A stretch of 64,000 nucleotides of DNA from Candidatus Australimonas brisbanensis (GTDB lineage: Bacteria; Chloroflexota; Dehalococcoidia; Lucifugimonadales; Australimonadaceae), in contig JAYQTA010000002.1 in the NCBI GenBank assembly GCA_038147155.1, positions 195,595 to 259,594 on the forward strand. The letters run 5' to 3'. The notes under the pieces were generated by a model, which did not search any database, was not told where the DNA came from, and worked only from the letters and a program-made list of their open reading frames with translations. The number at the start of each line of letters is the position of its first letter. Within the stretch, counting starts at the first letter, position 1. Below, piece after piece: positions 2,132-64,000 of this stretch. The position numbers were made by a program, and so were the translations under genes.

Positions 2132-3268
2132 ATGGGAGAGGTCGTCTTCGCCGCAGCCACCGTCCACGCCCCGCAGCTGCTCACGCGCCCGCCGCAGGAG
2201 GACCCAGCCCAGCTGGACGCCGACATCGCGGCCATGAACGCGCTGGGCGCGCTTCTGGACGAGACCACGCCCGACGTGCTGCTGCTCATCGGCATCGACC
2301 ATGTGGAGACGTTCTGGCTCACGGCGGTGCCGCAGTTCGCCATCATCACCGGCGCGCGTGCCACGGCCGAGTACGCCGGGCACACCTACGCCCCGTCCAT
2401 CCACCAGCCCTTCGCCCGCGGGCTGCTGGAGGGGCTGGTGGAGCGGGGGATAGACCTCTCCTACGCCCAGGACGCCCTGCTGGGACACGCCTTCGCCGTC
2501 CCGCTGGAGTACGTCCATGAGGGCCGGGGGATCCCGGTGGTGCCCCTGTTCGTCAACGCCTACCTGCCCCCGCTGCCCACGACGCAGCGATGCGTGGAGG
2601 TGGGCCAGGCCATCGGGCAGGTCATCGCCTCGCGCCCTGAGCGCGTGGCCATCCTGGCCTCCGGCGGCATGTCCCACTACCCCGGTACGTGGAAGTACTA
2701 CCACCCCGAGTACGGCTTCGACCACTGGGCCATCCAGGAGATCGAGGAGGGGCGCTTCTCCTCCCTGGTGGAGCTGACCGGCGAGCAGTTGGACGAGGTG
2801 GGCAACACCGAACTGCTCCCGTGGCTCATCATGCAGGGCGCCACGGGCGTCCAGCGGGGCGAGCTGCTCACCTACCAGCCCACCTCGCATCACGGCCACG
2901 CGGTGATGCGCTTCATCCCCGACCGGGGTGGGCGCGGCCAGGAGCACCAGGACATGCTCCCCTACGGGGGGTTCGAGTTCGCGGGGAAGGGGTACGAGTT
3001 CTACAAGTACCCCACGCCGGAGGAGTTCCCCCTCAACAACGCCCTCTACCTGCTGCGTACCGACCACACGCACCTGGAGCGCTTCCTGGACAGACCCGAC
3101 GCCTACTGCGAGGAGCGCGGGCTCTCGGCGGCCCAGGCCAAGGCGCTCAAGCAGATGACCACCGACGCGGTGGTGGCGGAGGGGGCGCACGGCATCCTGG
3201 CCATCACGGCCATGCTGGTGATCCAGCGCGCCAAGCGCGAGCGCGACGCCCAAAAGGCCGCTCGCTAG
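2132..3268 (+). CDS. class III extradiol ring-cleavage dioxygenase, single-chain LigB-domain + LigA-like C-terminal domain
   Basis: The N-terminal ~280 aa has LigB hallmarks (AATVHAPQL, LIGIDHVETF, SGGMSHYPG). The C-terminal ~90 aa (PLNNALYLLRTDHTHLERFLDRPDAYCEERGLSAAQAKAL...) resembles the LigA small subunit. Confidence 0.8.
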   Translation: MGEVVFAAATVHAPQLLTRPPQEDPAQLDADIAAMNALGALLDETTPDVLLLIGIDHVETFWLTAVPQFAIITGARATAEYAGHTYAPSIHQPFARGLLEGLVERGIDLSYAQDALLGHAFAVPLEYVHEGRGIPVVPLFVNAYLPPLPTTQRCVEVGQAIGQVIASRPERVAILASGGMSHYPGTWKYYHPEYGFDHWAIQEIEEGRFSSLVELTGEQLDEVGNTELLPWLIMQGATGVQRGELLTYQPTSHHGHAVMRFIPDRGGRGQEHQDMLPYGGFEFAGKGYEFYKYPTPEEFPLNNALYLLRTDHTHLERFLDRPDAYCEERGLSAAQAKALKQMTTDAVVAEGAHGILAITAMLVIQRAKRERDAQKAAR

Positions 3269-5360: not shown

Positions 5361-7109
5361 ATGCCCATCCGAGTCCTGCCGCCGGAGGTCGCTGCTGGCA
5401 TCGCCGCGGGTGAGGTCATCGAGCGGCCCGCCTCGGTGGTGAAGGAACTGGTGGACAACGCGCTGGACGCCGGCGCGCGCTCCCTCAGCGTGGAACTGGA
5501 GCAGGGAGGGCTGGCCCGCATCCGGGTGACCGACGATGGGTGCGGCATCCCGCAGGACGAGCTGCCCCTGGCCTTCACGCGCCACGCCACGTCCAAGATC
5601 GCCGCGCTGAAGGACCTCGACTCGCTCTCCACCATGGGCTTTCGTGGCGAGGCTCTGGCCTCCATCGCCGCCGCTTCGCGGGTGCGCCTGGCCTCTCGCC
5701 CGTCGCAGGCAGCAGGAGCGGCGTACCTGGAGATGGCAGGGGTGAGCGCGGGGGCATCCGGCACCGAGGCCGCCGCACCCGGCACCACCGTCACCGTGGA
5801 ATCGCTCTTCGCCTCCATCCCGGCACGCCTGAAGTTCCTGCGCTCGGTGTCTGCGGAGACGGCGCGGGTGCGGGCGGTGGTCGAGCACGCGGCCATGGCC
5901 TTCCCCGGCGTGCGCATGCGCCTGCGGGCTGACGGGCGCACCCTCTTCGAGAGTTCCGGCAACGGTGAGCTGCGTGAGGTGCTGGCCCAGGTGTTCGACG
6001 CCCGCACCGCTGCGGCGCTGCTTCCCGCGGTTCCCTCATCGCGCGCGCCGTACCCCGCGTACGGGTTCGTCTCGCCGCCCTCGGTGAGCCGGGCCAACCG
6101 CACGGGGATGCACCTGTTCGTCAACGGGCGCTGGATCACCAGCCGCACTCTCTCGGTGGCGGTTGAAGAAGCCTACCGGGGCCTGCTGATGGAGGGGCGC
6201 TACCCCCTCGCGGTGCTGTTCCTCCAGGTACCGCCGGCCGAGGTGGACGTGAACGTCCATCCCAACAAGCGGGAGGTGCGCTTCGTCCGCGACGCCGACG
6301 CCTTCTCCTCGGTGCAGCGCGCCGTTCGCGAGGTACTGCTGGAGGCCGAGCCGGTGCCCGAGGCGCCGGGGTTGCTGTCCAGCCCGATCCCGGACGCGCC
6401 TGCGCCCCTGGGCCTGCTCATGAGCGGTCTGACCGCACCGGCCCCGCCCGGCCCGCTGCCGGAGCCCGCCTTCCACGGAGTGGCCGAGCCTGCGGCAGCC
6501 TACGCGCCCACCGCACCGGCTCCGCAGGCAGGCCTGCCGCACCTGCGGGTGCTGGGGCAGGTGGCCTCTGCGTACATCGTGGCCGAGGGGCCCGACGGCC
6601 TCTACCTGGTGGACCAGCACGCCGCCCACGAGTCGGTGCTCTACTACCGGCTGCTGGCCGCATGGGAGGCGGGGCAGGGGCCTGCCGTGCAACCGCTGCT
6701 GGAGCCGCTGCCGTTGGACCTGAGCCACGCGGAGCAGGAGGCGGCGGAGGACGCCCGTGCGGAGCTGAGCCGCTACGGTGTGTCCCTAGAGCCCTTCGGG
6801 GCCGAGACGTGGCTGCTGCGCTCGCTCCCGGCTCTCGCCCGGCGGGTGGACCCGCGCCGCCTGGTGGCCGAGGTGCTGGAGGCGCACCGCCATCCCGGCG
6901 CCTACCCCGCCACTCACCAGGCCGTGGCTGCGTCCATCGCCTGCCACAGCGCCGTGCGCGCGGGCCAGGCGCTCAGCACCGAGGAGATGGAGGCGCTGGG
7001 CCGCGCGCTGGTGGAGGAGGCGAACCCCCAGCACTGCCCCCACGGGCGCCCCACCACGGTGCGGGTGTCCACGGCGGCGCTGGCCCGCGAATTCGGGAGG
7101 ACGGGATGA
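5361..7109 (+). CDS. mutL: DNA mismatch repair protein MutL
   Basis: N-terminal GHKL ATPase motifs (IAAGEVIERPASVVKELVDNALDAGA, VTDDGCGI, GFRGEALASI). C-terminal endonuclease-type domain (DQHAAHE, QHCPHGRPT). Confidence 0.95.
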   Translation: MPIRVLPPEVAAGIAAGEVIERPASVVKELVDNALDAGARSLSVELEQGGLARIRVTDDGCGIPQDELPLAFTRHATSKIAALKDLDSLSTMGFRGEALASIAAASRVRLASRPSQAAGAAYLEMAGVSAGASGTEAAAPGTTVTVESLFASIPARLKFLRSVSAETARVRAVVEHAAMAFPGVRMRLRADGRTLFESSGNGELREVLAQVFDARTAAALLPAVPSSRAPYPAYGFVSPPSVSRANRTGMHLFVNGRWITSRTLSVAVEEAYRGLLMEGRYPLAVLFLQVPPAEVDVNVHPNKREVRFVRDADAFSSVQRAVREVLLEAEPVPEAPGLLSSPIPDAPAPLGLLMSGLTAPAPPGPLPEPAFHGVAEPAAAYAPTAPAPQAGLPHLRVLGQVASAYIVAEGPDGLYLVDQHAAHESVLYYRLLAAWEAGQGPAVQPLLEPLPLDLSHAEQEAAEDARAELSRYGVSLEPFGAETWLLRSLPALARRVDPRRLVAEVLEAHRHPGAYPATHQAVAASIACHSAVRAGQALSTEEMEALGRALVEEANPQHCPHGRPTTVRVSTAALAREFGRTG

Positions 7110-7732
7110 GCGCCGCGCTGCGCGTACTCCTGGCCACGGCCAACCCCGCCAAGGCGGAGCACCTCGCCTGGCTGTGCGCGGGGCTGCGCGTCGAACCGGT
7201 GCATCCGGGCCCCGGTGGGGGGCCGCAGGTGGCCGAGGATGCGGCGAGCCACCTGGGCAATGCGGTGCGCAAGGCGGTGGCCTGGTCGGCGAGGCAGGGC
7301 GGCGTCGCGCTGGCCTCCGACGGGGGGCTGGTGGTGCCCGCGCTGGAGGGGGAGTGGAGTTCCCTCACCACCCGCCGGGCCACGGGCACCGGCCTGGAGA
7401 CGGACGAGGAGCGCGCCGGGCGGCTGCTGCGCCACATGGCGCGTTTGGCGGACGCGGAGCGCGCGGCCCACTGGGTGGAGGCCGTCGCCATCGCGCGTGA
7501 TGGCCGGTTGGTGGGCGCCTGGCAGGCCCAGGGCCTCGCCGGAGTCATCGCCCAGACCTATGCACCCCAGCCGGGCGCGGCGGACGGCTTCTGGGTCAGC
7601 GGGCTGTGGGCCGATGCGACCACCGGGCAGCGGCTGTGGGAGCTGGACGAGGCCGCCCGCGAGCGCCTCGCCGACCCGTGGCTGACCCTGGCCCTGCCCG
7701 CCCGCGACCTGCTGGCTCGCTTGGCAGGCTAG
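7106..7732 (+). CDS. divergent Ham1/RdgB-like (non-canonical NTP pyrophosphatase fold) protein
   Basis: Its ATG overlaps the mutL stop (ATGA). LLATANPAKAEHL, ASDGGLVVPALEG and GFWVSGLW align with RdgB ATGNxGK, DDSGL and FGYDP, but several catalytic positions are substituted. Confidence 0.6.
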   Translation: MSAALRVLLATANPAKAEHLAWLCAGLRVEPVHPGPGGGPQVAEDAASHLGNAVRKAVAWSARQGGVALASDGGLVVPALEGEWSSLTTRRATGTGLETDEERAGRLLRHMARLADAERAAHWVEAVAIARDGRLVGAWQAQGLAGVIAQTYAPQPGAADGFWVSGLWADATTGQRLWELDEAARERLADPWLTLALPARDLLARLAG

Positions 7733-10999: not shown

Positions 11000-12076
11000 A
11001 TGGCTGACATCGTTCTGGGCATCGGCACCTCACACAGCCCCATGCTCGCCCTCAATGGAGAGCAGTGGAACCGTTACCGCGCCGTGGACTACAAGTCCGA
11101 GGCGCTGGTCTTCCCACCCGGGGGCATCTCCATGTCCTACGAGCAGGGCCTCAAGCACGTCCCCACGGCCATCCGTGAGAAGCCGCTCACCCTCGAGGTG
11201 TTCGAGGAGCAGTCGGCCGCCTGCCAGCGGGGCATCGCGGAACTGGCCAAGACCTTCGCCGAGGTCAACCCCGACGTCACGGTCATCATCTCGGACGACC
11301 AGGACGAGTGGTTCTTCGACAACCTGATGCCCGCGTTCACCATCTTCTGGGGCAAGTCCGTGCCCATCATCCCGCGCGTGGCCCGCGGCCCGCACGATGC
11401 GGACATCGCCGAGGCCATCGCCAAGGGCTACGGCGACGTGGCCATGGACGTGCCGGTGCAGCAGGAGCTGGGCCGCCACGTCATCAACTACATGATCGAG
11501 CACGAGTTCGACGTCTCGCACTTCACGGACGTGCGCAAGGCCTACGGCGGCTCGGTGGTGCGCCGCTACCCCACCGCGGACGGGGAGTCCGACGCGGTGC
11601 GCGTCACCGACCCGGTGGACCAGGGGCTGCCCCACGGCTTCGCCTTCGTGGTCAAACGCATCATGGGCAACAAGCCCCGGACCATCCTGCCCATCTTCGA
11701 GAACACCTGTTACCCGCCCAACCAGCCCACGGCCAAGCGTTCCTACAAGTTCGGCCAGGCCGTGGCCGATGCTATCCGCGCCTGGGACTCCAACGCCCGG
11801 GTGTGCATCGTCGGTTCCGGCGGCCTCTCGCACTTCGTGACCGATGAGGTGCTGGACCGCGCGTGCCTCACGGCCCTGGAGAAGAAGGACGCCCAGGGGC
11901 TCATGTCCCTGCCTCGCGAGCGGCTCTACTCCGCCGCCTCCGAGACCCAGAACTGGGTGGCGCTGGGCGGGGCCATGGCGGACACGGCCCTGAACATGGA
12001 GCTGATCGAGTACGTCCCGGTGTACCGCACCGAGGCGGGCACCGGCGGCGGCTGGGCCTTCGCTCGCTGGCAGTAG
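11000..12076 (+). CDS. LigB-superfamily class III extradiol dioxygenase (gallate/protocatechuate-4,5-type)
   Basis: AAGGAGG precedes ATG 11000, which is internal to ORF 10895... GIGTSHSPML, IISDDQDEW, VGSGGLSHFV, WVALGGAM. Confidence 0.8.
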   Translation: MADIVLGIGTSHSPMLALNGEQWNRYRAVDYKSEALVFPPGGISMSYEQGLKHVPTAIREKPLTLEVFEEQSAACQRGIAELAKTFAEVNPDVTVIISDDQDEWFFDNLMPAFTIFWGKSVPIIPRVARGPHDADIAEAIAKGYGDVAMDVPVQQELGRHVINYMIEHEFDVSHFTDVRKAYGGSVVRRYPTADGESDAVRVTDPVDQGLPHGFAFVVKRIMGNKPRTILPIFENTCYPPNQPTAKRSYKFGQAVADAIRAWDSNARVCIVGSGGLSHFVTDEVLDRACLTALEKKDAQGLMSLPRERLYSAASETQNWVALGGAMADTALNMELIEYVPVYRTEAGTGGGWAFARWQ

Positions 12077-40636: not shown

Positions 40637-41299
40637 GTGAACATGGATCCCATCGTTGAGGCATTCTCCAAGCTGGGCACGACGCCCGTGTCCGACGCCC
40701 TCGACCGGCTTGGCCTGGTCGGGCAGGTGCTGGGCATCAAGCCCATCGACCGCAAGTTCCGTCTGTGCGGGCGCGCCTTCACGGTGCGCACCGAGCCCGT
40801 GACCGCCGGCACCAAGGGCGCCAGCGTGGGCGACTACATCGACGACATCCCCGAGGGCGGCATCGTCGTCCTGGACAACGGCGGCGCGCTGGACGCCACC
40901 GTGTGGGGCGACATCCTGACCATCATGGCCTCCCGCAACAAGCTGGGTGGCACGGTGATCCACGGCGTCTGCCGCGACTCCGACCGCTCCCTGGAGCTGG
41001 GCTACCCCATCTTCGCCCGTGACACCTACATGCGCACGGGCAAGGATCGGGTGAAGGCCGAGGAGTACAACGGCCCCGTCTCCCTGGGCGAGGTGCGCGT
41101 GACCCCCGGTGACATCCTCATCGGCGACGGCGACGGCATCGTGGTCATCTCCAAGGAGCACGAGGAGCAGGTGCTCAAGACGGCCCAGGAGATCGACGCC
41201 ATCGAGGAGCAGATCCGCAACGAGATCCAGAAGGGCGGGCGCCTGGACGAGGCCCGCAAGAAGTTCCGCTACTTCTCCCTCCAGTCCCGCGAGAAGTAG
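40637..41299 (+). CDS. RraA-family protein, 4-carboxy-4-hydroxy-2-oxoadipate aldolase/oxaloacetate decarboxylase (LigK)-like
   Basis: TTPVSDALDRLG, VWGDILT, GTVIHGVCRD, GDGDGIVVI. Start is GTG 40637 or ATG 40643. Confidence 0.8.
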   Translation: MNMDPIVEAFSKLGTTPVSDALDRLGLVGQVLGIKPIDRKFRLCGRAFTVRTEPVTAGTKGASVGDYIDDIPEGGIVVLDNGGALDATVWGDILTIMASRNKLGGTVIHGVCRDSDRSLELGYPIFARDTYMRTGKDRVKAEEYNGPVSLGEVRVTPGDILIGDGDGIVVISKEHEEQVLKTAQEIDAIEEQIRNEIQKGGRLDEARKKFRYFSLQSREK

Positions 41300-41319
41300 C
41301 CCCCTGCCTCATGTCACCA

Positions 41320-41356
41320 GAACGGGGCGCCCGCGGGCGCCCCGTTCGCTTTGTTC
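41320..41356 (+). terminator. intrinsic terminator
   Basis: GAACGGGGCGCC-CGCG-GGCGCCCCGTTC is a perfect 12-bp stem followed by GCTTTGTTCG. Confidence 0.6.
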
Positions 41357-41463
41357 GAGCAGGCCCCGTGGGCCCTGGGCGGCCCTTGACCCCCCACGGG
41401 GGGCGGGTTAGCGTTTGCCCACCGGCGAGCGCTGGGTATCGAGCCATCACGGAGGCGACCTCC

Positions 41464-42576
41464 ATGCAGACCAACATCCCCTGTGTCCTGATGCGCGGTG
41501 GCACGTCCAAGGGCCCCTTCTTCCTGGCCAAGGACCTTCCCGCCGACCCTGACCTGCGCGACCAGGTATTGCTGGCGCTCATGGGCTCCCCCGACGTGCG
41601 CCAGATCGACGGGTTGGGCGGAGCTGACCCCCTCACCTCCAAGGTGGCGGTGGTGAGCGCCCCCTCCACCCGGGAGGACTGCGACGTGGACTACCTGTTC
41701 CTGCAGGTGGTACCCGACAAGCCCGTGGTGGATCTGACCCAGAACTGCGGCAACATGCTGGCCGGTGTGGGCCCCTTCGCCATCGAGCATGGGCTCATCC
41801 CCGCGCAGGACGGCGAGACGCCGGTGCGCATCCACATGGTCAACTCGGGCGATAAGGCCGTCGCCCGCATCCCCACGCCCGGCGGCGAGGTGGAGTACGG
41901 GGGCGACGCGCGCATCGATGGGGTGCCGGGTACCGCCGCGCCCATCTTCATCGACGTGGAGGAGACGGCGGGGAGCATCTGCGGCGCGCTGCTGCCCACG
42001 GGCAACCTGGTGGACGTGATTGACGGCATCGAGTGCACGCTCATGGACAACGGGATGCCCGTGGTGGCCATGCGCGCCGAGGACCTGGGCCGCACCGGCT
42101 ACGAGACGCGCGATGAGCTCAACGCCGACGAGGAGCTCAAGAAGCGCATCGAGGTCATCCGCCTGCAGGCCGGGCCGATGATGAACCTGGGCGACGTGAC
42201 CGATAAGGTCGTGCCCAAGATGTTCCTGTTGGCCAAGCCCAAGGCGGGCGGGGCCATCTCCACCCGTTCCTACATCCCCAAGGTGGCCCACGCCTCCATC
42301 GGCGTGCTGGCCGCCGTCACGGTGGCGACGGCTGCCGTGATGCCCGGCACCACGGCCTACGACCTGGCGGTCCGCCCCGAGGGCGCGCGCAAGGTGCTGG
42401 AGCTGGAGCACCCCACCGGCTTCTTCACCGTGGAGATCGAGACCGAGGGCCCCGAGTCCTCCCTCCACATCAAGCGCTCGGCGCTGCTGCGCACTGCACG
42501 GCGCATCATGGAGGGTCAGGTGAGCATCCCGTCGAGCGTCTGGGACGGCAAGAGCGCCCAGGCAGCCCACGCCTAG
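41464..42576 (+). CDS. PrpF-family isomerase, 4-oxalomesaconate tautomerase (LigU/GalD)-like
   Basis: GGAGG RBS. ATG 41464 is internal to ORF 41311... IPCVLMRGGTSKGPFF, SKVAVVS, QNCGNMLAGVGPFA. Confidence 0.8.
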   Translation: MQTNIPCVLMRGGTSKGPFFLAKDLPADPDLRDQVLLALMGSPDVRQIDGLGGADPLTSKVAVVSAPSTREDCDVDYLFLQVVPDKPVVDLTQNCGNMLAGVGPFAIEHGLIPAQDGETPVRIHMVNSGDKAVARIPTPGGEVEYGGDARIDGVPGTAAPIFIDVEETAGSICGALLPTGNLVDVIDGIECTLMDNGMPVVAMRAEDLGRTGYETRDELNADEELKKRIEVIRLQAGPMMNLGDVTDKVVPKMFLLAKPKAGGAISTRSYIPKVAHASIGVLAAVTVATAAVMPGTTAYDLAVRPEGARKVLELEHPTGFFTVEIETEGPESSLHIKRSALLRTARRIMEGQVSIPSSVWDGKSAQAAHA

Positions 42577-42584
42577 GAGTAGCG

Positions 42585-43463
42585 ATGACCGAGCGTGTAA
42601 TCAAGACCATCCCCGGCCCGCACCACAATCCCTCCAAGCCCGGGCTGGTGCTGCCGGCCAACGCCTGCGATGCCCACTGCCACGTCTTCGGACCGGGCGA
42701 GAAGTTCCCCTATCACCCCAACCGGGCCTACACGCCCCCCGACGCCTCGTGGGAGAAGCTGCGGGCGCTGCACGACCACCTGGGCATCGAGCGCGCGGTC
42801 ATCGTCCACGCCTCCTGCCACGGCCCCTACATGGAGGCGACGCTGGATGCCATCGCCCACTCCGGCGGGCGCTACCGGGGCACCTCCATCGTGGAGCCGG
42901 GCATCACCGACGCCGAGCTGCGCCGCTACCACGAGGGCGGCATCCGCGCGGTGCGCTTCAACTTCGTGAAGCACCTGGAGTCGGTGCCGGACCCCGCCGA
43001 GGTGCGCCGCATGGCCGAGCGCATCGCGCCCATGGGCTGGCACCTGGTGGTGCACCTGGACGCCGTGGACATCGATGAGCTCGCCCCGCTGCTGCTGGGC
43101 CTCCCAGTGCCCTTCGTCATCGACCACATGGCCCGCGTGAAGGCGGGCGACGGGCTGGAGCAGGCGCCCTTCCAGACGCTGCTGCGCCTCATGGCCAACG
43201 AGAAGGCGTGGGTGAAGATCTGCGGCGGGGAGCGCATCTCCTCCGACGGCCCGCCCTTCCACGACGCCGTGCCCTTCGCCCAGGCGCTCATCAAGGCGGC
43301 GCCCGAACGGGTGTTGTGGGGCACGGACTGGCCGCACCCCAACGTGAAGCACATGCCCGACGACGGCGGGCTGGTGGATCTGCTGGGCCTCTACGCGCCC
43401 GATGCCGCCACCCTCAAGCAACTCACGGTGGACAACCCCACCCGGCTCTACTGGGCGGACTGA
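42585..43463 (+). CDS. amidohydrolase, 2-pyrone-4,6-dicarboxylate lactonase (LigI)-like
   Basis: AGGAG RBS. ACDAHCHVFGP, HLVVHLD, VIDHMAR, WGTDWPHP. Confidence 0.8.
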   Translation: MTERVIKTIPGPHHNPSKPGLVLPANACDAHCHVFGPGEKFPYHPNRAYTPPDASWEKLRALHDHLGIERAVIVHASCHGPYMEATLDAIAHSGGRYRGTSIVEPGITDAELRRYHEGGIRAVRFNFVKHLESVPDPAEVRRMAERIAPMGWHLVVHLDAVDIDELAPLLLGLPVPFVIDHMARVKAGDGLEQAPFQTLLRLMANEKAWVKICGGERISSDGPPFHDAVPFAQALIKAAPERVLWGTDWPHPNVKHMPDDGGLVDLLGLYAPDAATLKQLTVDNPTRLYWAD

Positions 43464-56500: not shown

Positions 56501-57382
56501 CTACGGCAGGGTGTAGTCCACCACCAGCGTGGGCCACCCGGCCGGGGCGCCCTCCCTGCTCCCAAAGCGCTTGGCGGTGCGGGTGCCGCTGGAAGCGTCG
56601 GGCTTGACCAGCCAGCCGTGATTCAGAGACGGGCTGACCAACCACGCCTGCACATCCGCCATCAGCCCCGCACCCTCCCAGGAGGCGGCGCCGGAACGGT
56701 CCACATTGGCTGAGCCGGAGGAGGTTGCCTCGAAGTCCCCGCCCGGCGCACCCCAGGTGGTGGTGAGTGAGGCGCGGGTCCAGGTGGCGCCGGAGGGGTT
56801 GGGCGCACCCCGGCCCTCCTCGCCTCCCGCGTTCTCCACGCCCTCCGACCAGGAGGTGCTCACGCGGTGCAGCCCGAAGGGGAGGGGCCCCGCCTGGGTG
56901 CGGTCAACGCTGAACGTGAGGCGCACGCCGGTGATGGTGGCGCCCTGGGGGATGGAGGAGAGGTCGAACCGCACCAGCGCGTGCCTTTCGTTGCCCTGGT
57001 TGGTGAAGCCCGAGAACAGGTGCTCCCCGGCCCCGTTCCCCAGGTTGCCGGACTCCCCGTAGAGCGTGACATCGGCCACGGGAGCAAGCGTCACGCTGAG
57101 GCTGGTGGGGGTGGGCGAGGGCGTTGCGGTGGGCGCGAGCGCCTGGGTGACGGTGGGTGTGGGAGTGGGGGCGGGCAGCGGCATTGCGGTCGCGGTTGGC
57201 GCCCCGCTGGGCGTGGATGCGGGCGAGGAGGTGGGCGTGGCCGTCGCTGTGGGGGCTGCGCCAGGGACGGGCGTCGTCGTGGGGGCAGGCGCCGGCGTGG
57301 CGGTGGGCGTGGGCTCAGGCCCAGCGCACGCGGCCAGGGCCAGGGTGGTGGCGAGCAGAAGGGCGGCGGCGCTCAGACGCAT
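56501..57382 (-). CDS. secreted lipoprotein with PT-rich linker and DNRLRE-type domain
   Basis: GGAGG lies 6 nt before ATG 57382. Lipobox LALAACAG. ADVTLYGESGNLGNGAGEHLF...RHALVRFDLSSIPQGATITGVRLTF. Confidence 0.75.
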   Translation of the reverse strand: MRLSAAALLLATTLALAACAGPEPTPTATPAPAPTTTPVPGAAPTATATPTSSPASTPSGAPTATAMPLPAPTPTPTVTQALAPTATPSPTPTSLSVTLAPVADVTLYGESGNLGNGAGEHLFSGFTNQGNERHALVRFDLSSIPQGATITGVRLTFSVDRTQAGPLPFGLHRVSTSWSEGVENAGGEEGRGAPNPSGATWTRASLTTTWGAPGGDFEATSSGSANVDRSGAASWEGAGLMADVQAWLVSPSLNHGWLVKPDASSGTRTAKRFGSREGAPAGWPTLVVDYTLP

Positions 57383-57443
57383 GGGGAACCTCCGTGAGTG
57401 CATGCATTCAGACGCCTGAGGCCGCCGATCGGATGCACCCGCT

Positions 57444-58361
57444 CTAGACGAACAGTTCCTCGACGGTCCACAGGCGCTGGGTGAGCCCCTGCTCGTACAG
57501 GTAGGTGGCGATGGCGCGCACCGACGCTGCGTGGGTGCCCAGGCCGTGCTTGCGCGGGAAGATGCCGAGGCGGCGCATGGCGCCCACGTTCAGCCCCTGG
57601 TGCTCGCCAGAGTCCGGCTCCTCAGCGTCGTAGATCGCGCGGGCCTTCTCGCTGGCCGCCACCACCGCCTCGGCTAGGCCGGGGTTCGCGGCGTGCGACT
57701 CCTCCTTCATCACCAGCAGCGTGTTGATGGGCATGGCGCCGGTGCGCTTGAAGTAGTCGTCGATGAGTGGGTTGGCTTCCTCGGTGAGCCGTTGGACGGT
57801 TGGGGCCAGTTCCGCGTTGCCGCCCGCCACCACCAGCGCGTCGATCTCACCCGCGGCCAGCAGATCCTCCAGCTTGGCGCGCTTCTCGGAGGTGAACCGC
57901 TTGGAGCGCGGGTAGTTGATGTCCCGCAGCGAGTCAGCCTCGCCCTCCACCCAGGTAATGCACTCGGCCGAGACGTCAAATTGGTGCACCAGGATGCCGC
58001 GCAGCCACGCCGCGGGGTTGGAGGCGAAACCCAGGGGCACGCCGATGCGCTTGTTCGCCAGGTCCTCCGGGCTCTTGATGCCCGCGTTCTTGTTCACCGT
58101 CACGCCGGTGAGCGGGTAGAATAGGTTGGGAAAGACCGGGAGGCCGATGAGCTGCACCCCGTTGTCCTTAGCCACGATGTAGTTGGTGATGGTCAATTCA
58201 CCCACATCGTACGGGCGCGTGGTGACCATGCTGGGGAAGATGGGTGCGGGGGCGAAGCCGGGGGAGGAGACCACCACCTCGAACCCCTCCACTTTCACCC
58301 GGCCCTCCACCAGGTGCTTGGTCTCCAGCCGGGTGCCCACCGCCATCTTCAGTGCTGCCAT
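57444..58361 (-). CDS. 4,5-dihydroxyphthalate-decarboxylase (PhtD)-like, cytoplasmic SBP-fold protein
   Basis: AGGAG RBS, no signal peptide. ...HLVEGRVKVEGFEVVV...YDVGELTITNYIVAK... matches the PhtD/NMT1-like pattern. Confidence 0.7.
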   Translation of the reverse strand: MAALKMAVGTRLETKHLVEGRVKVEGFEVVVSSPGFAPAPIFPSMVTTRPYDVGELTITNYIVAKDNGVQLIGLPVFPNLFYPLTGVTVNKNAGIKSPEDLANKRIGVPLGFASNPAAWLRGILVHQFDVSAECITWVEGEADSLRDINYPRSKRFTSEKRAKLEDLLAAGEIDALVVAGGNAELAPTVQRLTEEANPLIDDYFKRTGAMPINTLLVMKEESHAANPGLAEAVVAASEKARAIYDAEEPDSGEHQGLNVGAMRRLGIFPRKHGLGTHAASVRAIATYLYEQGLTQRLWTVEELFV

Positions 58362-58444
58362 CGGGGTCTCCTTGGTGTTCAGTCAGGTTCCATGGGGCTG
58401 TTTAAACCGCGAGCGGCACAGATGCCGCCTTGTCTGAGCATCCA

Positions 58445-59029
58445 CTACGCCGGGCGCGGTGCGGTGGCAGCCTTGAAGGTGTAGGACGTCCCTGTCTCGG
58501 GGTTGTAGTAGCGGCGCTTCACCTTTTCCAGGTCCATGGAGGTGACGCGCACGTACACCGTCTCCTCCTCGGAGGAGCCCTTGGTGGAATGGATCTCGCC
58601 GGGCAGGAAGTAGGCCACGTGCCCCGGCGCCTGGTAGTCGGCCCGGGTCACCTCCAGCGTGGGGCGCGCCGAGGGGTCATCGGCGTAGCGCCAGGCCATG
58701 CGGGTCTGCACGTTGGAACCGCGCTCCACGCCGTAGACCACGAAGGCTGGGCCGTGGTCGTGCGGGGCGGGCTTGGTGTCGGGACGCAGGGCGGGCTGAC
58801 GGTACGCCAGCACCATGAAGCCGGGGTCAGGGTGGCCGGTGGACTCGTCGGCGTGCATCACGTACATGCCGTTGTCCGGGCCGAACTTCTCGGAGGTCTC
58901 CGGCCAGCCGGTCGCGATGATGCGTCGCATGCACTCGGCGATGGTCTGCGCCTGCTCGCGCGGGTCGTCGGTGCCGTTGAAGGCACCACGGATGTCCTCG
59001 ATGAACTGCTCTTCCGTGTAGTTCGCCAC
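58445..59029 (-). CDS. cysteine-dioxygenase-type single cupin protein
   Basis: The AGGAGGAAGG RBS overlaps the upstream stop. GTG start. PHDHGPAFVVYGVERG...GEIHST metal-ligand pattern. Confidence 0.7.
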   Translation of the reverse strand: MANYTEEQFIEDIRGAFNGTDDPREQAQTIAECMRRIIATGWPETSEKFGPDNGMYVMHADESTGHPDPGFMVLAYRQPALRPDTKPAPHDHGPAFVVYGVERGSNVQTRMAWRYADDPSARPTLEVTRADYQAPGHVAYFLPGEIHSTKGSSEEETVYVRVTSMDLEKVKRRYYNPETGTSYTFKAATAPRPA

Positions 59030-59039
59030 AGCCTTCCTC

Positions 59040-60104
59040 CTAGAGCTTCACGCCGTACTCAGCCGCCAGGGCCTGGAAGTCCGGCTCCTTCAGCAGGCTG
59101 AGCGACCCGTTCTCGAACATCGTGCGTTCCCCGTTCAGCACCACCGTCTGGTCGGAGATGTAGGCCGAGAGGGTGTTGGCCAGGCGGCCGATGTGCACGT
59201 GCATCGTCTTGGGTTCCGACAACTGACCAGGGCGCTTCTCGGCGCGCGGGTGCATGCCGCCGTGCCAGGAGTCCACGATGAACGTCTTCTCGTGCCCCAC
59301 CTTCGCCTCGTTGGCGGCCAGCAGGCCCTCGAACTGCTCCTTGCTCCACACGGTCTGGGTGTCGCCGTCCTTCACCTCGGAGGGCGCGGCACCGGCCCAC
59401 TCCAGCCCCGTGAGCATGTTGTTCTCAATGGAGAGCAGCAGGGGCGATGGGAAGGGCTCCTTGGAGGCGAGGCCCGGGTGGTCGAAGGCGATGGTGCCCT
59501 GGGCCTCGCCGGAGCCGACGGGCGCGTACACCTCGCCGGGGAACACCCGCTCGGTGCGGGAGAGCTCGGCGTCCTGAGCGAAGAAGGAGTCCGCCACCTC
59601 GGTGGGGCCCACCACCCGGCCGGACAGGTCCGTGCCCGCGGGGGTGGTGATGCGGTAGGAGCGCGCCTGAGCGGTGATCTCCTCAACGCGGCCGGCGAGA
59701 GCCATCACCAGTCGCCAGTCGAAGCGCGCGTGCTCCGAGGCCATGCGCTCCGGGGTGCGCATCCGGTTGTTGATGCGCACGTGGGCGGCCTGGCCGTTGG
59801 CCTTCAGGTGCTCCAGCAGCGCCACCCGGTTCACGTTGGCGTTCATCACCAGCTTGTCGGTGGCCAGCACCGCCGCGCCCACCACGGGCGGCAGCTCCCT
59901 GCTGCCCCGCGCCAGCGGGTCTATCCACAGGGAGTAGGCCTTGGCGCCCACGGAGGCGAGGACCTCCTCCATCAGCGTGACCAGGCCCGCGTCCACGCCA
60001 CCGTGCTCGTTGAGCAGCAGGACCGACTCGCCGGGCGCGGCGTTCAGGCAGTGCCGCACCAGGTTCTCGACCCCCGCCCGCACCGCCGCTGCGTCTGCCG
60101 CCAT
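59040..60104 (-). CDS. M29 aminopeptidase-T-fold protein, 2,5-dihydroxypyridine 5,6-dioxygenase (NicX)-like
   Basis: GGGAGG RBS, 354 aa. The layout ...VLLLNEHGGVD...TPAGTDLSG...GTIAFDHPG...DSWHGGMHP...HVHIG fits the NicX/aminopeptidase-T family. Assignment is from memory of the family. Confidence 0.65.
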   Translation of the reverse strand: MAADAAAVRAGVENLVRHCLNAAPGESVLLLNEHGGVDAGLVTLMEEVLASVGAKAYSLWIDPLARGSRELPPVVGAAVLATDKLVMNANVNRVALLEHLKANGQAAHVRINNRMRTPERMASEHARFDWRLVMALAGRVEEITAQARSYRITTPAGTDLSGRVVGPTEVADSFFAQDAELSRTERVFPGEVYAPVGSGEAQGTIAFDHPGLASKEPFPSPLLLSIENNMLTGLEWAGAAPSEVKDGDTQTVWSKEQFEGLLAANEAKVGHEKTFIVDSWHGGMHPRAEKRPGQLSEPKTMHVHIGRLANTLSAYISDQTVVLNGERTMFENGSLSLLKEPDFQALAAEYGVKL

Positions 60105-60231
60105 GGCGCACCTCCCGTACCGGCTGCGGCGATTCTAGGCCGCACCTGGCCCGCGCGCCACCCGCTCGCGCCGTTCACCATGGGGGAGCCCGTGCTATGC
60201 TCGCGCCCACATCTCGTCACAGGAGGCCGCC

Positions 60232-61470
60232 GTGGTCACGCCCAAGGCAGAACTGTTCGACTGGAACGAACCGAAGGGCACCAACCGAGCCGGGTTCGGC
60301 AAGTGGAAGTCGCCCAAGTCGCCCTACGACAACTTCATGGAGGCGCAGGGCATCCCGATCCACCGCGCCGTGGGCGTCCACAAGGTGCAGGACCTGCCCC
60401 TCTCCGACTGGAAGCGCCTGGGCGGGCGGGGCACCGGCATCCAACTCCTGGGCACCGAGCACCTGTGGGGCATGTACGTGGTGGAGGTGCCCGCGGGCGG
60501 TGCCCTCAACCCGGAGAAGCACCTGTACGAGGAGATCTACTACGTGGTGGAGGGGCGGGGGAGCACCGAGGTGTGGCAGGACGGGGATTCCCGCAAACTC
60601 ACCTTCGAGTGGGGCAAGGGCTCCCTCTTCGGCATCCCACTGAACGCCATGCACCGGCTGGTGAACGCCACCAACTCCCCGGCGCTGCTGCTGGCCGCGA
60701 CCACCGCGCCAAACATGCTCAACCTGGTGCGTGACCCGGACTTCGTCCTCAACTGCCCGTACCCCTTCACGGAGCGCTTCGACCCTGATGCCGAGGACTA
60801 CTTCAAGCCGGTGGAGGACATCTACGCCGACCCGGTGCGCGGCCTGGCCATGCGGCGCACCAATGTCATCCCGGACATCATCAACACCCACTTGCCGCGG
60901 GACAACCGCCGCTCGTTCTCCTACCGGCGGGTCGAGCCGCACATGGCGGGCGCCAACTTCTACATGAAGATCGGCGAGTACGAGACCGGCCAGTACTCCA
61001 AGGCCCACAAGCACGCCTCCGGCGCCATCCTGGTGTGCATCCGGGGCAAGGGCTACTCATACACCTGGCCTTCCACCCTCGGGCAGCACCCCTGGGAGGG
61101 CGGGAACGGCGACCAGGTCAAGCGCCAGGACTACGAGGAGGTGGGGATGATCTCCGCCGCCCCCATGTCCGGCGACTGGTTCCACCAGCACTTCGGCACC
61201 TCGCCGGATGGCATCCGCTTCCTCATCTTCGACGGCCCCTACGGGCCGGGCTTCCGCTCCGGCCGCAAGCCGGGCGACGATGCCATGGACGCGGGCGCCA
61301 TCAACACCCGTGAGGGCGGCAACGCCATCTCCTACCCCGACGAGGACCCCGCCGTGCGCAAGGAGTACGAGCGCATGCTGGGCATGGAGGGACTCAAGAG
61401 CGGGATGCCCGAGTGGGCCTACACCCACCACACGCCCCCGCCGGGTGCGGCGGAGATCGGCGGCGTCTAG
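60232..61470 (+). CDS. bicupin protein, paralog C (412 aa)
   Basis: AGGAGG lies 6 nt before GTG. SKAHKHASG...WFHQHFG in barrel 2. Tail YPDEDPAVRKEYERMLGMEGLKSGMPEWAYT. Confidence 0.8.
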   Translation: MVTPKAELFDWNEPKGTNRAGFGKWKSPKSPYDNFMEAQGIPIHRAVGVHKVQDLPLSDWKRLGGRGTGIQLLGTEHLWGMYVVEVPAGGALNPEKHLYEEIYYVVEGRGSTEVWQDGDSRKLTFEWGKGSLFGIPLNAMHRLVNATNSPALLLAATTAPNMLNLVRDPDFVLNCPYPFTERFDPDAEDYFKPVEDIYADPVRGLAMRRTNVIPDIINTHLPRDNRRSFSYRRVEPHMAGANFYMKIGEYETGQYSKAHKHASGAILVCIRGKGYSYTWPSTLGQHPWEGGNGDQVKRQDYEEVGMISAAPMSGDWFHQHFGTSPDGIRFLIFDGPYGPGFRSGRKPGDDAMDAGAINTREGGNAISYPDEDPAVRKEYERMLGMEGLKSGMPEWAYTHHTPPPGAAEIGGV

Positions 61471-61524
61471 TGAATAGGGGAGGTCGGGCCGCACGGCCCG
61501 ACCACCGTTCGCAAGGAGGTTCCG

Positions 61525-61830
61525 ATGGCCATCGTCGTGCGACGGACGCTCTTCGAGACGGTGGGCCAGGGCGGGCCGCTGGTGGAGCTGGTGAAGGAGA
61601 TGGAGTCGTTCTTCAACAAGGGCGGCATCAGCACCAAGACGCGGGTGCTGTCCGACTTCTACTCGGGACGCACCGACCGCGTCGTCCACGAGGCAGAGGT
61701 GGACTCGTGGGCCGACTACCAGCGCATCGGGGGCGTGATCAACGCGGACCCGGCCGCGTTCAAGGCCTGGTTCGCCAGGCCCAGCGGCCTGATAGACGGC
61801 GCCGAGGTGGAGGCCTGGCAGGTCCACTAG
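61525..61830 (+). CDS. NIPSNAP/Dabb-like small alpha+beta protein (101 aa)
   Basis: AAGGAGG RBS, high GC3. Weak family resemblance only. Confidence 0.55.
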   Translation: MAIVVRRTLFETVGQGGPLVELVKEMESFFNKGGISTKTRVLSDFYSGRTDRVVHEAEVDSWADYQRIGGVINADPAAFKAWFARPSGLIDGAEVEAWQVH

Positions 61831-61851: not shown

Positions 61852-62691
61852 TCAGCGCGCCAGGCGGCGCAGCAGGCCGGTGAGGGTGTCCACCGCCGTT
61901 ACCAGCAGGAGGTACCAGGCGAGCACCAGAGCCACGTGGGTCATGTCGAACCGGCTCATGGCGAGGCGCAGCTCCAGGCCCAGCCCCCCCGCGCCCACCA
62001 ACCCCACCACCACGCTGGCGCGCACCGCCACCTCCCACCGGTAGAGGGCGAAGGTGAGCAGGCGAGGCAGCAGCCCCGGCACGATGGCGTAGGCCAACAC
62101 CTGAGCCCGGCCCGCACCCGCCGTTCGCAGCGCACGCACAGGGCCGGGGTCCGCGTCCTCCGCAAGCTCTGCGCCGATCTTGCCCAGCACCCCGCCGTTG
62201 TGCAGGCCCAGGGCGATGGCCCCCGGCACGATGCCCGGAGCGAAGACGAACACCGCAACCAGGGCCCACACCAACTCCGGCACCCCGCGCAGCAGCACCA
62301 GCACCGCGCGGGCCAGGCCGAAGAGCGCCCATCCCCCCACACGGGCGCGCCCTGCCTGCGTGCCCGGCGTGACTGTGCGCGCCGCCAGGGGCACCAGGGC
62401 CAACGCCAACGCAGACGCGATCCCCATGGCGAGGATGCTCATGGCCAGCGTGTCCAGCGCGATGCGCCCGGTGCGCGCCCAAGACTCCACGCTAGAGAAG
62501 GCGGCGGGCCCCACCGCATCGAACCCCGCCAGGTCCGCCAGGAATGCACCCAGCCTGCGGAGCGTCTCTGCGGAGGCGAAGGGGTGCGCCGGGGCCTGCC
62601 CGGAGAAGGCCACGCCGCTCCACGCGGCGAGTGTCAGCACCGGGAGGGCCGCCAGCGAGACCTGCACGATGCCGAGGCGCGGGCGGCTCAT
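61852..62691 (-). CDS. phnE: phosphonate ABC transporter permease
   Basis: Its ATG overlaps the upstream stop (ATGA). ALRTAGAGRAQVLAYAIVPGLLP...YRWEVAVRASVVVGLVGAGGLG. Confidence 0.85.
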   Translation of the reverse strand: MSRPRLGIVQVSLAALPVLTLAAWSGVAFSGQAPAHPFASAETLRRLGAFLADLAGFDAVGPAAFSSVESWARTGRIALDTLAMSILAMGIASALALALVPLAARTVTPGTQAGRARVGGWALFGLARAVLVLLRGVPELVWALVAVFVFAPGIVPGAIALGLHNGGVLGKIGAELAEDADPGPVRALRTAGAGRAQVLAYAIVPGLLPRLLTFALYRWEVAVRASVVVGLVGAGGLGLELRLAMSRFDMTHVALVLAWYLLLVTAVDTLTGLLRRLAR

Positions 62692-63506
62692 GGGGCCAGC
62701 CCCCGGCGCACCGCGCTGCTCCAGGCGTCCACCGCAACCATGAGCAGCGCCATCGCCCACACGAAGGTCCAGGCACGGGCGAAGTCGAGGTCAGCGAGGG
62801 CGGTCTGGATGTGGAAGCCCAGCCCCCCCAACCCCACGAAGGAAAGAACAGCCGCCGAGCGTATCCCGCACTCCAGCCGGTAGAAGATGTAGCCCACCGC
62901 GTCGGCGGCGATGAGGGGGAGGCGCCCGTGAGCCAGCACCTGTGCCTCCGAGGCCCCGGCACGGCGCAGCGCCTCCAACGGCGCTTCGTCCGCATCCTGG
63001 AGCAGCTCGGCCAGCACCCGGCCCAGTATCCCCGCGTAGGGCAACGCCAAGGCCAGCACCCCCGCCCAGGGCGAGAGACCCACGGCGGCCACCAGCAGCC
63101 ACGCCCACACCAACTCATGCACCGCCCGCAGCACGCCCAGCAGCCCCCTTGCTCCCCCCACGCTGCACCAGCGGGCCCAGCGTGTCCGGGCCAGCACGCC
63201 GGAGGCGACGACGCCCAGCGGCACGCCCAGCACCAGAGCCAGACTGAGGCCAGCGAGGGCATAGGCCAGCGTGCGCCACGCCGCCGTCACCACCGTGCCC
63301 GCCAGCGCCCAGGAGAGTTCCGGGCGCAGCGCGGCCAGGGCTATCTCTCCCGCGGCGCGAAGCCCGCCGCCGTGCAGTAGCCCCTCGCGCCAGGGCACCG
63401 CCAGCAGGCTCAGCGCCAGCATCCCGGTGAGCGCCAGCGTCAGGGCGCGCCGCCCCTCCACCCGCGCGCGCAGCGTGCTGGGGAGCGCACCGGCGCGGCT
63501 AAGCAT
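62688..63506 (-). CDS. phnE: phosphonate ABC transporter permease (second copy)
   Basis: ALRRAGASEAQVLAHGRLPLI...YRLECGIRSAAVLSFVGLGGLG. Confidence 0.85.
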   Translation of the reverse strand: MLSRAGALPSTLRARVEGRRALTLALTGMLALSLLAVPWREGLLHGGGLRAAGEIALAALRPELSWALAGTVVTAAWRTLAYALAGLSLALVLGVPLGVVASGVLARTRWARWCSVGGARGLLGVLRAVHELVWAWLLVAAVGLSPWAGVLALALPYAGILGRVLAELLQDADEAPLEALRRAGASEAQVLAHGRLPLIAADAVGYIFYRLECGIRSAAVLSFVGLGGLGFHIQTALADLDFARAWTFVWAMALLMVAVDAWSSAVRRGLAP

Positions 63507-64000
63507 CCGGTTCCTCCAGGGTGTAGAGCGCCGCCACCTGCGCGTCGGTCACCTGCTCCGCTGGCAGGTCGAAGAGCGCCTGCCCGGCGCGCAGGCCGAT
63601 CAGCCGGTCGAAGCGCGCCCGCGCGGCGCCCACGTCGTGGAGCGAGGCGACCAGCGCTCGGCCGCGCTCGCGGGCGATGCCGGTGAGCAGGGCCAGCACG
63701 TCATAGCCCCGCGCGGGGTCCAGCGAGGCCACGGGCTCGTCGGCCAGCAGCAGGGCGGGCTGCTGCACCAGCAGCCGGGCGATGGCCACCCGTTGACGCT
63801 CCCCGCCCGACAGGCGGCTGGTGCGCTCGCCGCCGCGCCCCGCCAGGCCCACGCGGGCCAGCTCATACTCAGCCGCAGGGCGGCCCTGGGGCACTAGGAA
63901 GGACAGGAGGGAGCGGGCCAGGCTCCAGCGGCCGAGGTTGCCCGCCAAAACGTTCTGCAGGGCCGAGAGAGTGGGTACCAGGTCGAGACCCTGGGCCAGC
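63499..64000 (-). CDS. phnC: phosphonate ABC transporter ATP-binding protein; 5' end outside window
   Basis: The frame stays open to the window edge (LAQGLDLVPTLSALQNVLAGNLGR...). LSGGERQRVAIARLL, LLLADEPVASLD. Overlaps the phnE start by 8 nt. Confidence 0.9.
   Translation of the reverse strand, partial: LAQGLDLVPTLSALQNVLAGNLGRWSLARSLLSFLVPQGRPAAEYELARVGLAGRGGERTSRLSGGERQRVAIARLLVQQPALLLADEPVASLDPARGYDVLALLTGIARERGRALVASLHDVGAARARFDRLIGLRAGQALFDLPAEQVTDAQVAALYTLEEPDA

Follow-up and report, generated by a model that had tools for sequence, protein, structure and literature searches.

A reduced copy of a putative catabolic operon of SAR202-type Dehalococcoidia, built from uncharacterised oxygenase and lyase clades

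Closest described systems and a conserved operon of SAR202 bacteria

In Alcaligenes faecalis the picolinate (pic) cluster has first PicC, a decarboxylase of the Amidohydro_2 family, and then PicD, a NicX-type dioxygenase. Gentisate 1,2-dioxygenase (GDO) has its active site in the N-terminal cupin barrel, and the desulfinase DszB shares the PBP-type fold of the decarboxylase PhtD. In NicX itself, Fe(II) is bound by His265, Ser302, His318 and Asp320, while Leu104-His105, Glu177 and His189 position the substrate (PMC7910607). Here we analyse remote relatives of these enzymes, encoded at positions 57444 to 61830 of a 64,000-nucleotide stretch of Candidatus Australimonas brisbanensis (assembly GCA_038147155.1, contig JAYQTA010000002.1, forward-strand positions 195,595 to 259,594), hereafter the window, where three minus-strand genes, C, B and A in order of transcription, diverge from two plus-strand genes, D and E (Table 1). 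The window genome (G000) comprises 1.87 Mb in 18 contigs, is 96% complete and belongs to the SAR202-type Dehalococcoidia of the Chloroflexota. The region is a reduced, streamlined copy of a putative catabolic operon nearly confined to these bacteria, which probably breaks down a small (hetero)aromatic, possibly sulfur-bearing, compound.

Synteny was assessed in 44 loci from species-representative genomes encoding a relative of C. The gene order C-A'-B-A, in which A' denotes another PhtD-like paralogue, with about 26% identity to A, was found in 27 of these loci, from 27 Dehalococcoidia/SAR202 species, and in 24 of the 44 D lies divergently upstream and two Amidohydro_2 genes, AH1 and AH2, precede C. 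The canonical arrangement is D, facing away from AH1-AH2-C-A'-B-A, and in Tara Oceans and chromosome-level contigs the six plus-strand genes of this operon abut or overlap. They are usually preceded by an ornithine-cyclodeaminase/mu-crystallin gene and followed by an acetyl-CoA synthetase gene. The short form, with D divergent from C-B-A, is found only in the window and in its sister species. An orthologue of A' (59% identical) is present in the window genome, on another contig and in a different cluster (G000 C5:121533-124582), where it closes a minus-strand trio formed by an Amidohydro_2 gene, another PhtD-like paralogue and A'; genes for a Rieske oxygenase, a luciferase-like monooxygenase, a GMC oxidoreductase and an aldo-keto reductase are located nearby.

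C-B-A is a conserved, selected, tightly packed and co-transcribable minus-strand unit of cytoplasmic enzymes, to which D is linked in most species. Both C and B are single-copy in the window genome, and their orthologues occur together in 12 of 41 relatives, with C alone in one, B alone in one and neither in 27 (Fisher p = 2e-8, uncorrected for phylogeny). Comparison with the sister species gave dN/dS values of 0.11 for A, 0.05 for B, 0.13 for C and 0.06 for D, a sign of strong purifying selection, and hence the reduced gene set is maintained by selection. After the most divergent homologue of B (41%) an NMT1/PhtD-like gene again comes next, with a rhodanese gene nearby. Within the window, C is the first gene of the minus-strand unit and is separated from B by 10 nt and B from A by 83 nt, while 54 nt separate D from E. 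A Shine-Dalgarno motif stands 5-8 nt before the start of all five genes, and that of B, ctcTAGgaggaagg, overlaps the TAG stop codon of C. Spurious open reading frames are abundant on every strand of this genome of about 70% GC, and the third-position GC content of 0.91-0.96 marks all five reading frames as real genes. The spacer between C and D is 84% identical in the alignment with the sister genome (G001) and contains two blocks, identical in the sister, which we regard as candidate divergent promoters. One of them, CGATTCTAGGCCGC, has TAGAAT on the minus strand, facing C, and the other, GTGCTATGCTC, has TTCACC (TTGACC in the sister) 16 nt upstream of it, which gives TTCACC-16 nt-TATGCT, facing D. 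The spacer also holds an imperfect 11-nt inverted repeat.

A first-pass annotation, made from the letters of this stretch, had described a five-gene oxygenase/decarboxylase island. Its five open reading frames were confirmed, together with their ribosome-binding sites, the overlap of that of B with the stop codon of C and the lack of a regulator or transporter gene inside the unit, and its fold assignments for A-D proved correct in sequence and profile searches and in Foldseek searches with AlphaFold models of B and C. Synteny in relatives, by which the proposal had asked to be judged, was found for C-B-A and mostly for D, and it failed for E; the real unit consists of three to four genes. In fact, the copy of E in the sister species (L011 923-1213), at the same position next to D, has decayed into a pseudogene, 58% identical and interrupted by three in-frame stops (two TAG and one TAA). 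Intact homologues of E are found in 9 of 18 genera, and in none of the four genera with flanks examined (about 1.5 kb on each side) do they lie beside cluster genes. E, which has a third-position GC content of 0.96 and a good ribosome-binding site, was accordingly rejected as a part of the unit and is a chance, unrelated neighbour of it. The label NIPSNAP/Dabb-like given to this protein found no support at the sequence level: E and four homologues match neither PF07978, PF07876 nor related families, nor any other Pfam entry, even at E<=10. The E family (about 100 aa) has an invariant SG-TDRV motif, the G of which is replaced in one of five aligned sequences, and residues 57-99 of E gave unexpected phmmer matches (E 3e-5) to blades of the Photorhabdus PLL lectins. 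The term genomic island was likewise abandoned: the GC content equals that of the flanks, no mobile-element genes are found, and synteny with the sister genome extends into the flanks, the region being a reduced form of a larger conserved operon.

Table 1. Features of the locus and of the remainder of the window (positions in the window; nt, nucleotides; aa, amino acids)
Feature	Position	Strand	Length	Shine-Dalgarno motif	Description
Gene A	57444..58361	-	305 aa	aaggaga	PhtD-family PBP-fold enzyme, cytoplasmic, no signal
Gene B	58445..59029	-	194 aa	taggaggaagg	Thiol-dioxygenase-fold cupin, 3-His site H90/H92/H147
Gene C	59040..60104	-	354 aa	gggagg	Remote NicX/M29-fold superfamily member, putative non-haem metal enzyme
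C/D divergent control region	60105..60231	.	127 bp		Promoter-like boxes conserved in sister species
Inverted repeat	60120-60149		11 nt		Imperfect, in the C/D spacer
Gene D	60232..61470	+	412 aa	aggagg	Bicupin, remote relative of gentisate 1,2-dioxygenase
Gene E	61525..61830	+	101 aa	aaggagg	Small protein, uncharacterised family, adjoins conserved unit
DNRLRE-domain lipoprotein gene	56501-57403	-		none	Starts 40 nt after A
PhnE-PhnE-PhnC-PhnD	61852-64000, and G000 C2:259093-261511				Complete phosphonate-type ABC importer, converging on D-E
RraA-like, PrpF-family and Amidohydro_2 genes	40637-43463	+			Adjacent aldolase, isomerase and Amidohydro_2 protein
LigB-family gene	about 2153-2899				Extradiol dioxygenase
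LigB-family gene	11222-12010				Extradiol dioxygenase

Enzyme families represented in the operon

The single sequence of C had no match in Pfam, NCBIfam or among the sequences of the PDB, a narrow C profile also missed NicX, and ten distant relatives of C had no match in NCBIfam. With its AlphaFold model (pLDDT 90.3) the top Foldseek matches were the NicX structures 7cn3 and 7cup (E 9e-17 to 7e-16, TM score 0.58-0.62, 14-15% identity), followed by M29 aminopeptidases (E 1e-9). Of 1.8 billion representative clusters an exhaustive profile search returned 487 at E<=1e-3, and the profile widened with these matches reached NicX with an E of 1.2e-16 over the full length, which identifies C as a true but remote NicX homologue. 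At the superfamily level, C is a remote, putative metalloenzyme of the NicX superfamily with a remodelled, histidine-rich site. The active sites were compared by reading the widened-profile alignment against the published NicX site (PMC7910607), and the proposed metal sites given here are accordingly alignment-based. Among the iron ligands, NicX His265 corresponds to Ser279 in C, with His281 two residues on, Ser302 to His304, His318 to Thr311, at a variable position, and Asp320 to Ser313, while Leu300 of NicX, which has no known role, corresponds to His302, invariant across the superfamily. The substrate gate Leu104-His105 is occupied by Asn92-Arg93, His189 by Val187, next to Arg186, and the insertion that contains Glu177 is missing from C. 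Replacing the His/Ser/His/Asp set of NicX, the C clade, which is confined to Dehalococcoidia, Binatia and similar lineages, has the conserved motif D278-S-W-H281...H302-x-H304 (SWH...HxH).

Three neighbour contexts offer hints that the C clade may cleave N-heterocyclic rings. In lineage L033 the gene for an isochorismatase-family hydrolase directly precedes C and that for an alpha/beta-hydrolase converges on it, these being the families of NicF and NicD; in another lineage a kynurenine-formamidase-type cyclase gene is found two genes from a C homologue; and in a third, a xanthine-dehydrogenase-type molybdenum hydroxylase gene heads, upstream, the same gene string as a C homologue. Deeper homologues of C (36-40% identical), from Binatia and other Chloroflexota, lie beside ornithine-cyclodeaminase/mu-crystallin genes. 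Upstream of C at L023 a second cyclodeaminase-family gene (6476-7584) appears as two open reading frames of 288 and 81 aa with a 4-nt overlap, the 81-aa piece matching the C-terminal end of intact homologues, and may be split or frameshifted.

For B no Pfam match was obtained at E<=10, CDO_I included, and the only match at the sequence level was to mercaptosuccinate dioxygenase (MSDO, 8vni; phmmer E 3.7e-4), which the profile of the B family reached with an E of only 0.029. With the AlphaFold model (pLDDT 94), the first 46 PDB matches in Foldseek are all thiol dioxygenases, with 8vni at an E of 4.9e-12 and a TM score of 0.72, and the structural neighbours comprise MSDO, 3-mercaptopropionate dioxygenases (MDO), cysteine dioxygenases (CDO), a plant cysteine oxidase (PCO) and cysteamine dioxygenase (ADO), ergothioneine dioxygenase also being among the matches. 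His90, His92 and His147 of B align to His93, His95 and His149 of MSDO and are invariant or nearly so in 29 homologues, and the arginine equivalent to MSDO Arg175 is conserved as well. At the superfamily level B is thus a thiol-dioxygenase-fold cupin with a complete three-histidine site, and the most direct reading of its predicted fold would be the oxygenation of sulfur. The family has, in addition, invariant residues of its own (His66, Tyr99, Arg161, Arg172 and Tyr175). Among 5.8 billion proteins 39 clusters of B homologues were found, all named hypothetical and all from Chloroflexota, and by this measure B is an orphan family restricted to that phylum. Between one and four extra, distant B-like open reading frames, 25-30% identical, are present in each of G006, G013, G017, G021, G022, G023 and other SAR202 relatives, which suggests that cupins of the thiol-dioxygenase fold have expanded more widely in this lineage than has been recognised.

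A aligns over its full length with a 4,5-dihydroxyphthalate decarboxylase, PDB 9jp7 (E 1.3e-21, residues 4-304 against 26-339), and weakly matches the Pfam family NMT1 (E 1.3e-6). Its N-terminus, MAALKMAVGTRLETKH, has neither a signal peptide nor a lipobox, both of which are present in PhnD and in the DNRLRE lipoprotein of the same genome; because it has no signal peptide, A is not a transporter binding protein. At the superfamily level, and judged by its sequence, A is a predicted cofactor-independent lyase of the PhtD type. The residues H16, D52, E55, K65, W137 and Y203 are common to A and A' in about 60 sequences. A search of plasmids with A (tblastn) yielded only genes of about 30% identity, and those with an annotation are named ABC transporter substrate-binding protein. 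We considered whether A might be a desulfinase of the DszB type, with a catalytic cysteine, and rejected this, since neither A nor A' has a conserved cysteine equivalent to Cys27 of DszB. On the same strand, the DNRLRE-domain lipoprotein gene follows A, an order kept in the sister species only.

The N-terminal barrel of D matches Pfam Cupin_2 (E 5e-11, residues 83-155), and in the C-terminal barrel His259, His261, His318 and His320 are invariant, even in the two other aligned paralogues of the window genome. The profile of the D family reaches the gentisate dioxygenase 3bu7 with an E of 5.7e-6, in short stretches; D has no match to the NCBIfam equivalog of gentisate dioxygenase, and its score of 25 bits for 5-aminosalicylate dioxygenase is below the cutoff, which is 650. 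The family is large, with over 2000 homologues that are 60-79% identical to D and spread across phyla, and none is characterised. Outside SAR202 the orthologues of D are paired with an Amidohydro_2 gene and an NMT1-like gene, and C and B are absent, which makes the SAR202 operon look like two joined modules; D looks as if it came from the second (bicupin, Amidohydro_2 and PhtD-like), joined to the first in SAR202.

Proposed function and competing explanations

The explanation to which we give slightly better than an even chance is that of a streamlined SAR202 operon for the O2-dependent breakdown of a small anionic (hetero)aromatic compound. In such a route B would begin by oxygenating the substrate, and a conversion of thiol to sulfinate at this point is a serious possibility, albeit the less probable outcome. 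A could then remove an acidic substituent by ipso-protonation, releasing CO2, or SO2 if B makes a sulfinate; C would open the resulting hydroxylated N-heterocycle with O2, as NicX does with 2,5-dihydroxypyridine; and D might act on a second ring or on a side branch. As the two Amidohydro_2 genes and the cyclodeaminase-family gene have been lost and A' has moved, the genus of the window would keep only the core steps. The sequence put forward in the first-pass annotation, decarboxylation by A and then NicX-like ring cleavage by C, is a live possibility; sulfur oxygenation by B was absent from its readings. Searches of the literature on SAR202 bicupins, PhtD structure or mechanism, ergothioneine dioxygenase, and pairs of thiol dioxygenase and desulfinase brought up no account of a pathway so composed.

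Several points weigh against this explanation. C lacks two of the four NicX iron ligands (His318 and Asp320) and the NicX substrate residues, and may therefore perform a different chemistry, including hydrolysis of the M29-peptidase kind. In B, His161, His163 and Tyr165 of MSDO are replaced by Tyr159, Arg161 and Thr163, so that the outer-sphere His/Tyr pair of CDO, MDO and MSDO is absent; nevertheless, ADO and PCO are also devoid of this motif, and its absence thus does not exclude sulfur oxygenation. Orthologues of AH1, AH2 and the cyclodeaminase-family gene are missing from the window genome (best matches about 30%), and for that reason the pathway may be incomplete or repurposed here. Furthermore, within 1.87 Mb this genome contains about 20 bicupin genes, about 12 genes for PhtD-like PBP-fold proteins with no signal peptide and at least 10 Amidohydro_2 genes, and with so many bicupin and PhtD-like paralogues some adjacency is expected by chance. 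Finally, the C, B and D clades have no characterised member and A has no close characterised relative, and every chemical step of the route is consequently inferred.

The abundance of paralogues would also be the starting point for seeing no functional unit at all, with neighbours brought together by numbers and each gene serving a different pathway. The orthologues of D that occur apart from C and B in other phyla fit such a view, as do the genomes in which C stands alone (L033, L034 and L058) and the single one with B and no C (L080). We consider it very improbable, however, given that C and B are single-copy here and are found together in 12 of the 14 genomes having either, that 27 species share the order C-(A')-B-A, their genes overlapping or abutting, and that in the window the ribosome-binding site of B lies on the stop codon of C, 10 nt being all that separates the two genes. 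A decidedly unlikely, if somewhat stronger, alternative is that C hydrolyses a small amide or cyclic amidine, as a peptidase or amidase of the M29 type, and is not a ring-cleaving dioxygenase; the unit would then process a cyclic amino-acid derivative together with an enzyme of the cyclodeaminase/ketimine-reductase family. M29 aminopeptidases are the second-best structural neighbours of C, His304 is situated where a histidine would be expected in M29 enzymes and not in NicX (from the profile alignment and the ligands of M29 enzymes), and the ornithine-cyclodeaminase/mu-crystallin genes beside the C homologues of Binatia and other Chloroflexota point the same way. Nonetheless, NicX is closer to C than M29 is, both in Foldseek (E 9e-17 versus 1e-9) and in the profile search (E 1e-16 versus no M29 match), the partners B and D have oxygenase folds, and the window genome keeps C in spite of having no orthologous cyclodeaminase gene.

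Oxidative desulfurisation of a heteroaromatic thiol with a carboxyl group, such as a mercapto-pyridine or a compound resembling ovothiol or ergothioneine, we hold to be unlikely, yet deserving of attention. B would here be a true thiol (or thione) dioxygenase making a sulfinate, and A and A' cofactor-free desulfinases releasing sulfite by ipso-protonation as in decarboxylation, analogous to DszB; C would open the desulfurised ring, and a sulfite-oxidase-type enzyme would remove the sulfite in the lineages keeping it. Such a succession of thiol, sulfinate and desulfination is suggested by the fold of B, with its 46 foremost neighbours among thiol dioxygenases and ergothioneine dioxygenase among its matches, by the PhtD/NMT1-like gene that follows B in the window, in the 27 species and at its most divergent homologue, where the rhodanese gene is nearby, and by a sulfite-oxidase-family molybdoenzyme gene (Oxidored_molyb plus Mo-co_dimer) located beside C or one to two genes from it in three lineages (L023 4184-5269; L022/L029 212-1294; L033 10183-11397, directly after C). 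The three histidine ligands of B, its arginine equivalent to MSDO Arg175 and the fold common to DszB and PhtD are in keeping with it. On the other hand, B has Arg161/Thr163 in place of the His163/Tyr165 pair, matches CDO_I not at all and MSDO only marginally by its family profile, A and A' share no counterpart of the DszB cysteine, and DszB is not among the PDB matches of A at E<=1. Moreover, neither a sulfite oxidase nor an exporter adjoins the cluster in the operon of the 27 species or in the window genome, whose one sulfite-oxidase-family gene lies about 250 kb away. Least credible of all is a canonical pathway in disguise, be it that of nicotinate or picolinate with C as the NicX orthologue, of phthalate with PhtD feeding protocatechuate, or of gentisate with D. 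C, A and D do resemble NicX, PhtD and GDO at the level of the fold, LigK/LigU/LigJ-like genes are located 14 kb away in the window, and the six LigB-family dioxygenases of the genome could take protocatechuate. Residues, equivalog models and context have nevertheless led us to reject these pathways as largely refuted, in agreement with the first-pass annotation, which had recognised no canonical nic, pic, pht or gentisate cluster. The identity between C and NicX is 14-15%, two of the four NicX iron ligands and its substrate residues are missing from C, none of the five proteins matches an NCBIfam equivalog, A is remote from PhtD, and D attains GDO only through its family profile (E 6e-6). The neighbours identified within about 5 kb are the DNRLRE lipoprotein, permease halves, a quinone oxidoreductase and PhnE permeases, and include no NicC, NicD, NicE or NicF, no PicA or PicB, no phthalate dioxygenase and no dihydrodiol dehydrogenase. 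In Dehalococcoidia, PhtD-like genes (KEGG orthologue K04102) are in fact highly expressed in metagenome-assembled genomes that have no phthalate dioxygenase (PMC13200403).

Wider setting and comparison with known systems

Past E, on the side of the phosphonate-type importer, a 233-aa open reading frame about 3.4 kb away has the look of a Crp/Fnr-type regulator, as judged by eye, and beyond it are found an NMT1-like gene and one for a class II aldolase; the Tara contig L025 has the same pair, there about 5 kb away from the operon. Elsewhere in the window, the RraA-like, PrpF-family and Amidohydro_2 genes (Table 1) form a family set corresponding to LigK, LigU and LigJ (or LigI) of the lower pathway of protocatechuate/gallate 4,5-cleavage, and two of the six LigB-family extradiol dioxygenase genes of the genome are also located in the window. 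The genome has, besides, many SDR and GFO/IDH/MocA oxidoreductases, and three tandem bicupin genes at C2:8967-12352.

The uncultured Chloroflexota of the SAR202 group rank among the commonest bacteria in the dark ocean. Consumption of recalcitrant dissolved organic matter is ascribed to them, mostly on account of their expanded and uncharacterised enzyme families. The operon described here offers a concrete test case, as it is specific to its lineage and strongly conserved, and C and B, which form its core, are single-copy and not part of a swarm of paralogues. It brings together three enzyme clades with no studied member, namely a histidine-rich branch of the NicX superfamily, a thiol-dioxygenase-fold cupin without the outer-sphere residues, and PhtD-like lyases. 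Identification of the substrate would connect SAR202 with a particular marine compound, and new chemistry of non-haem iron would probably come to light. The cluster is a putative oxygenase/decarboxylase catabolic system built from uncharacterised clades, and it would be of greater interest still if the sulfur route were true: desulfurisation with ring cleavage would then constitute a previously undescribed pathway, give a first function to three orphan enzyme clades and act as a sink for aromatic thiols of the sea, ovothiol-type compounds for example.

Compared with the described enzymes, each member of the unit combines a familiar architecture with marked departures from it. B is only 12-19% identical to the thiol dioxygenases (MSDO, 8VNI; MDO, 4TLF and 6XB9; cysteine dioxygenase) and has His59 where MSDO has Arg66, but it shares with them the cupin fold and an N-terminal helical pair (TM score 0.6-0.72), the three-histidine iron site (HxH...H) at aligned positions and a C-terminal arginine aligned to MSDO Arg175. 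The similarity of A to PhtD (9JP7) is remote, A being one of about 12 paralogues in a 1.9-Mb genome, and no phthalate 4,5-dioxygenase or dihydrodiol dehydrogenase was found, either in the window near A or within the canonical operon; yet the alignment is full-length, the NMT1/PBP type II fold is common to both, both are cytoplasmic with no obvious cofactor, and A would likewise be expected to take an acidic group off an activated ring. With DszB, the 2'-hydroxybiphenyl-2-sulfinate desulfinase, A may have a mechanistic analogue, although it has no conserved equivalent of Cys27. D resembles the GDO-type bicupins (3BU7) in having two cupin barrels within about 400 aa and an HxH aligned to the AHRH motif of GDO, but its conserved histidine cluster is in the C-terminal barrel. 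C adopts the two-domain M29-like fold of the NicX/Hpo 2,5-dihydroxypyridine 5,6-dioxygenase of Pseudomonas putida (7CN3 and 7CUP) and has a histidine near the position of NicX His265, whereas no maleamate-pathway gene set accompanies it and no genes of the NicC, NicD, NicF or NicE type are found in the window around the cluster. As to the picolinate cluster, the SAR202 cluster has neither the PicA/PicB hydroxylases nor the deformylase, amidase or isomerase set, and the Amidohydro_2 genes at the operon have been altogether lost in the window's own genome; the canonical SAR202 operon nonetheless has, like pic, Amidohydro_2 genes directly upstream of a gene of the NicX superfamily.

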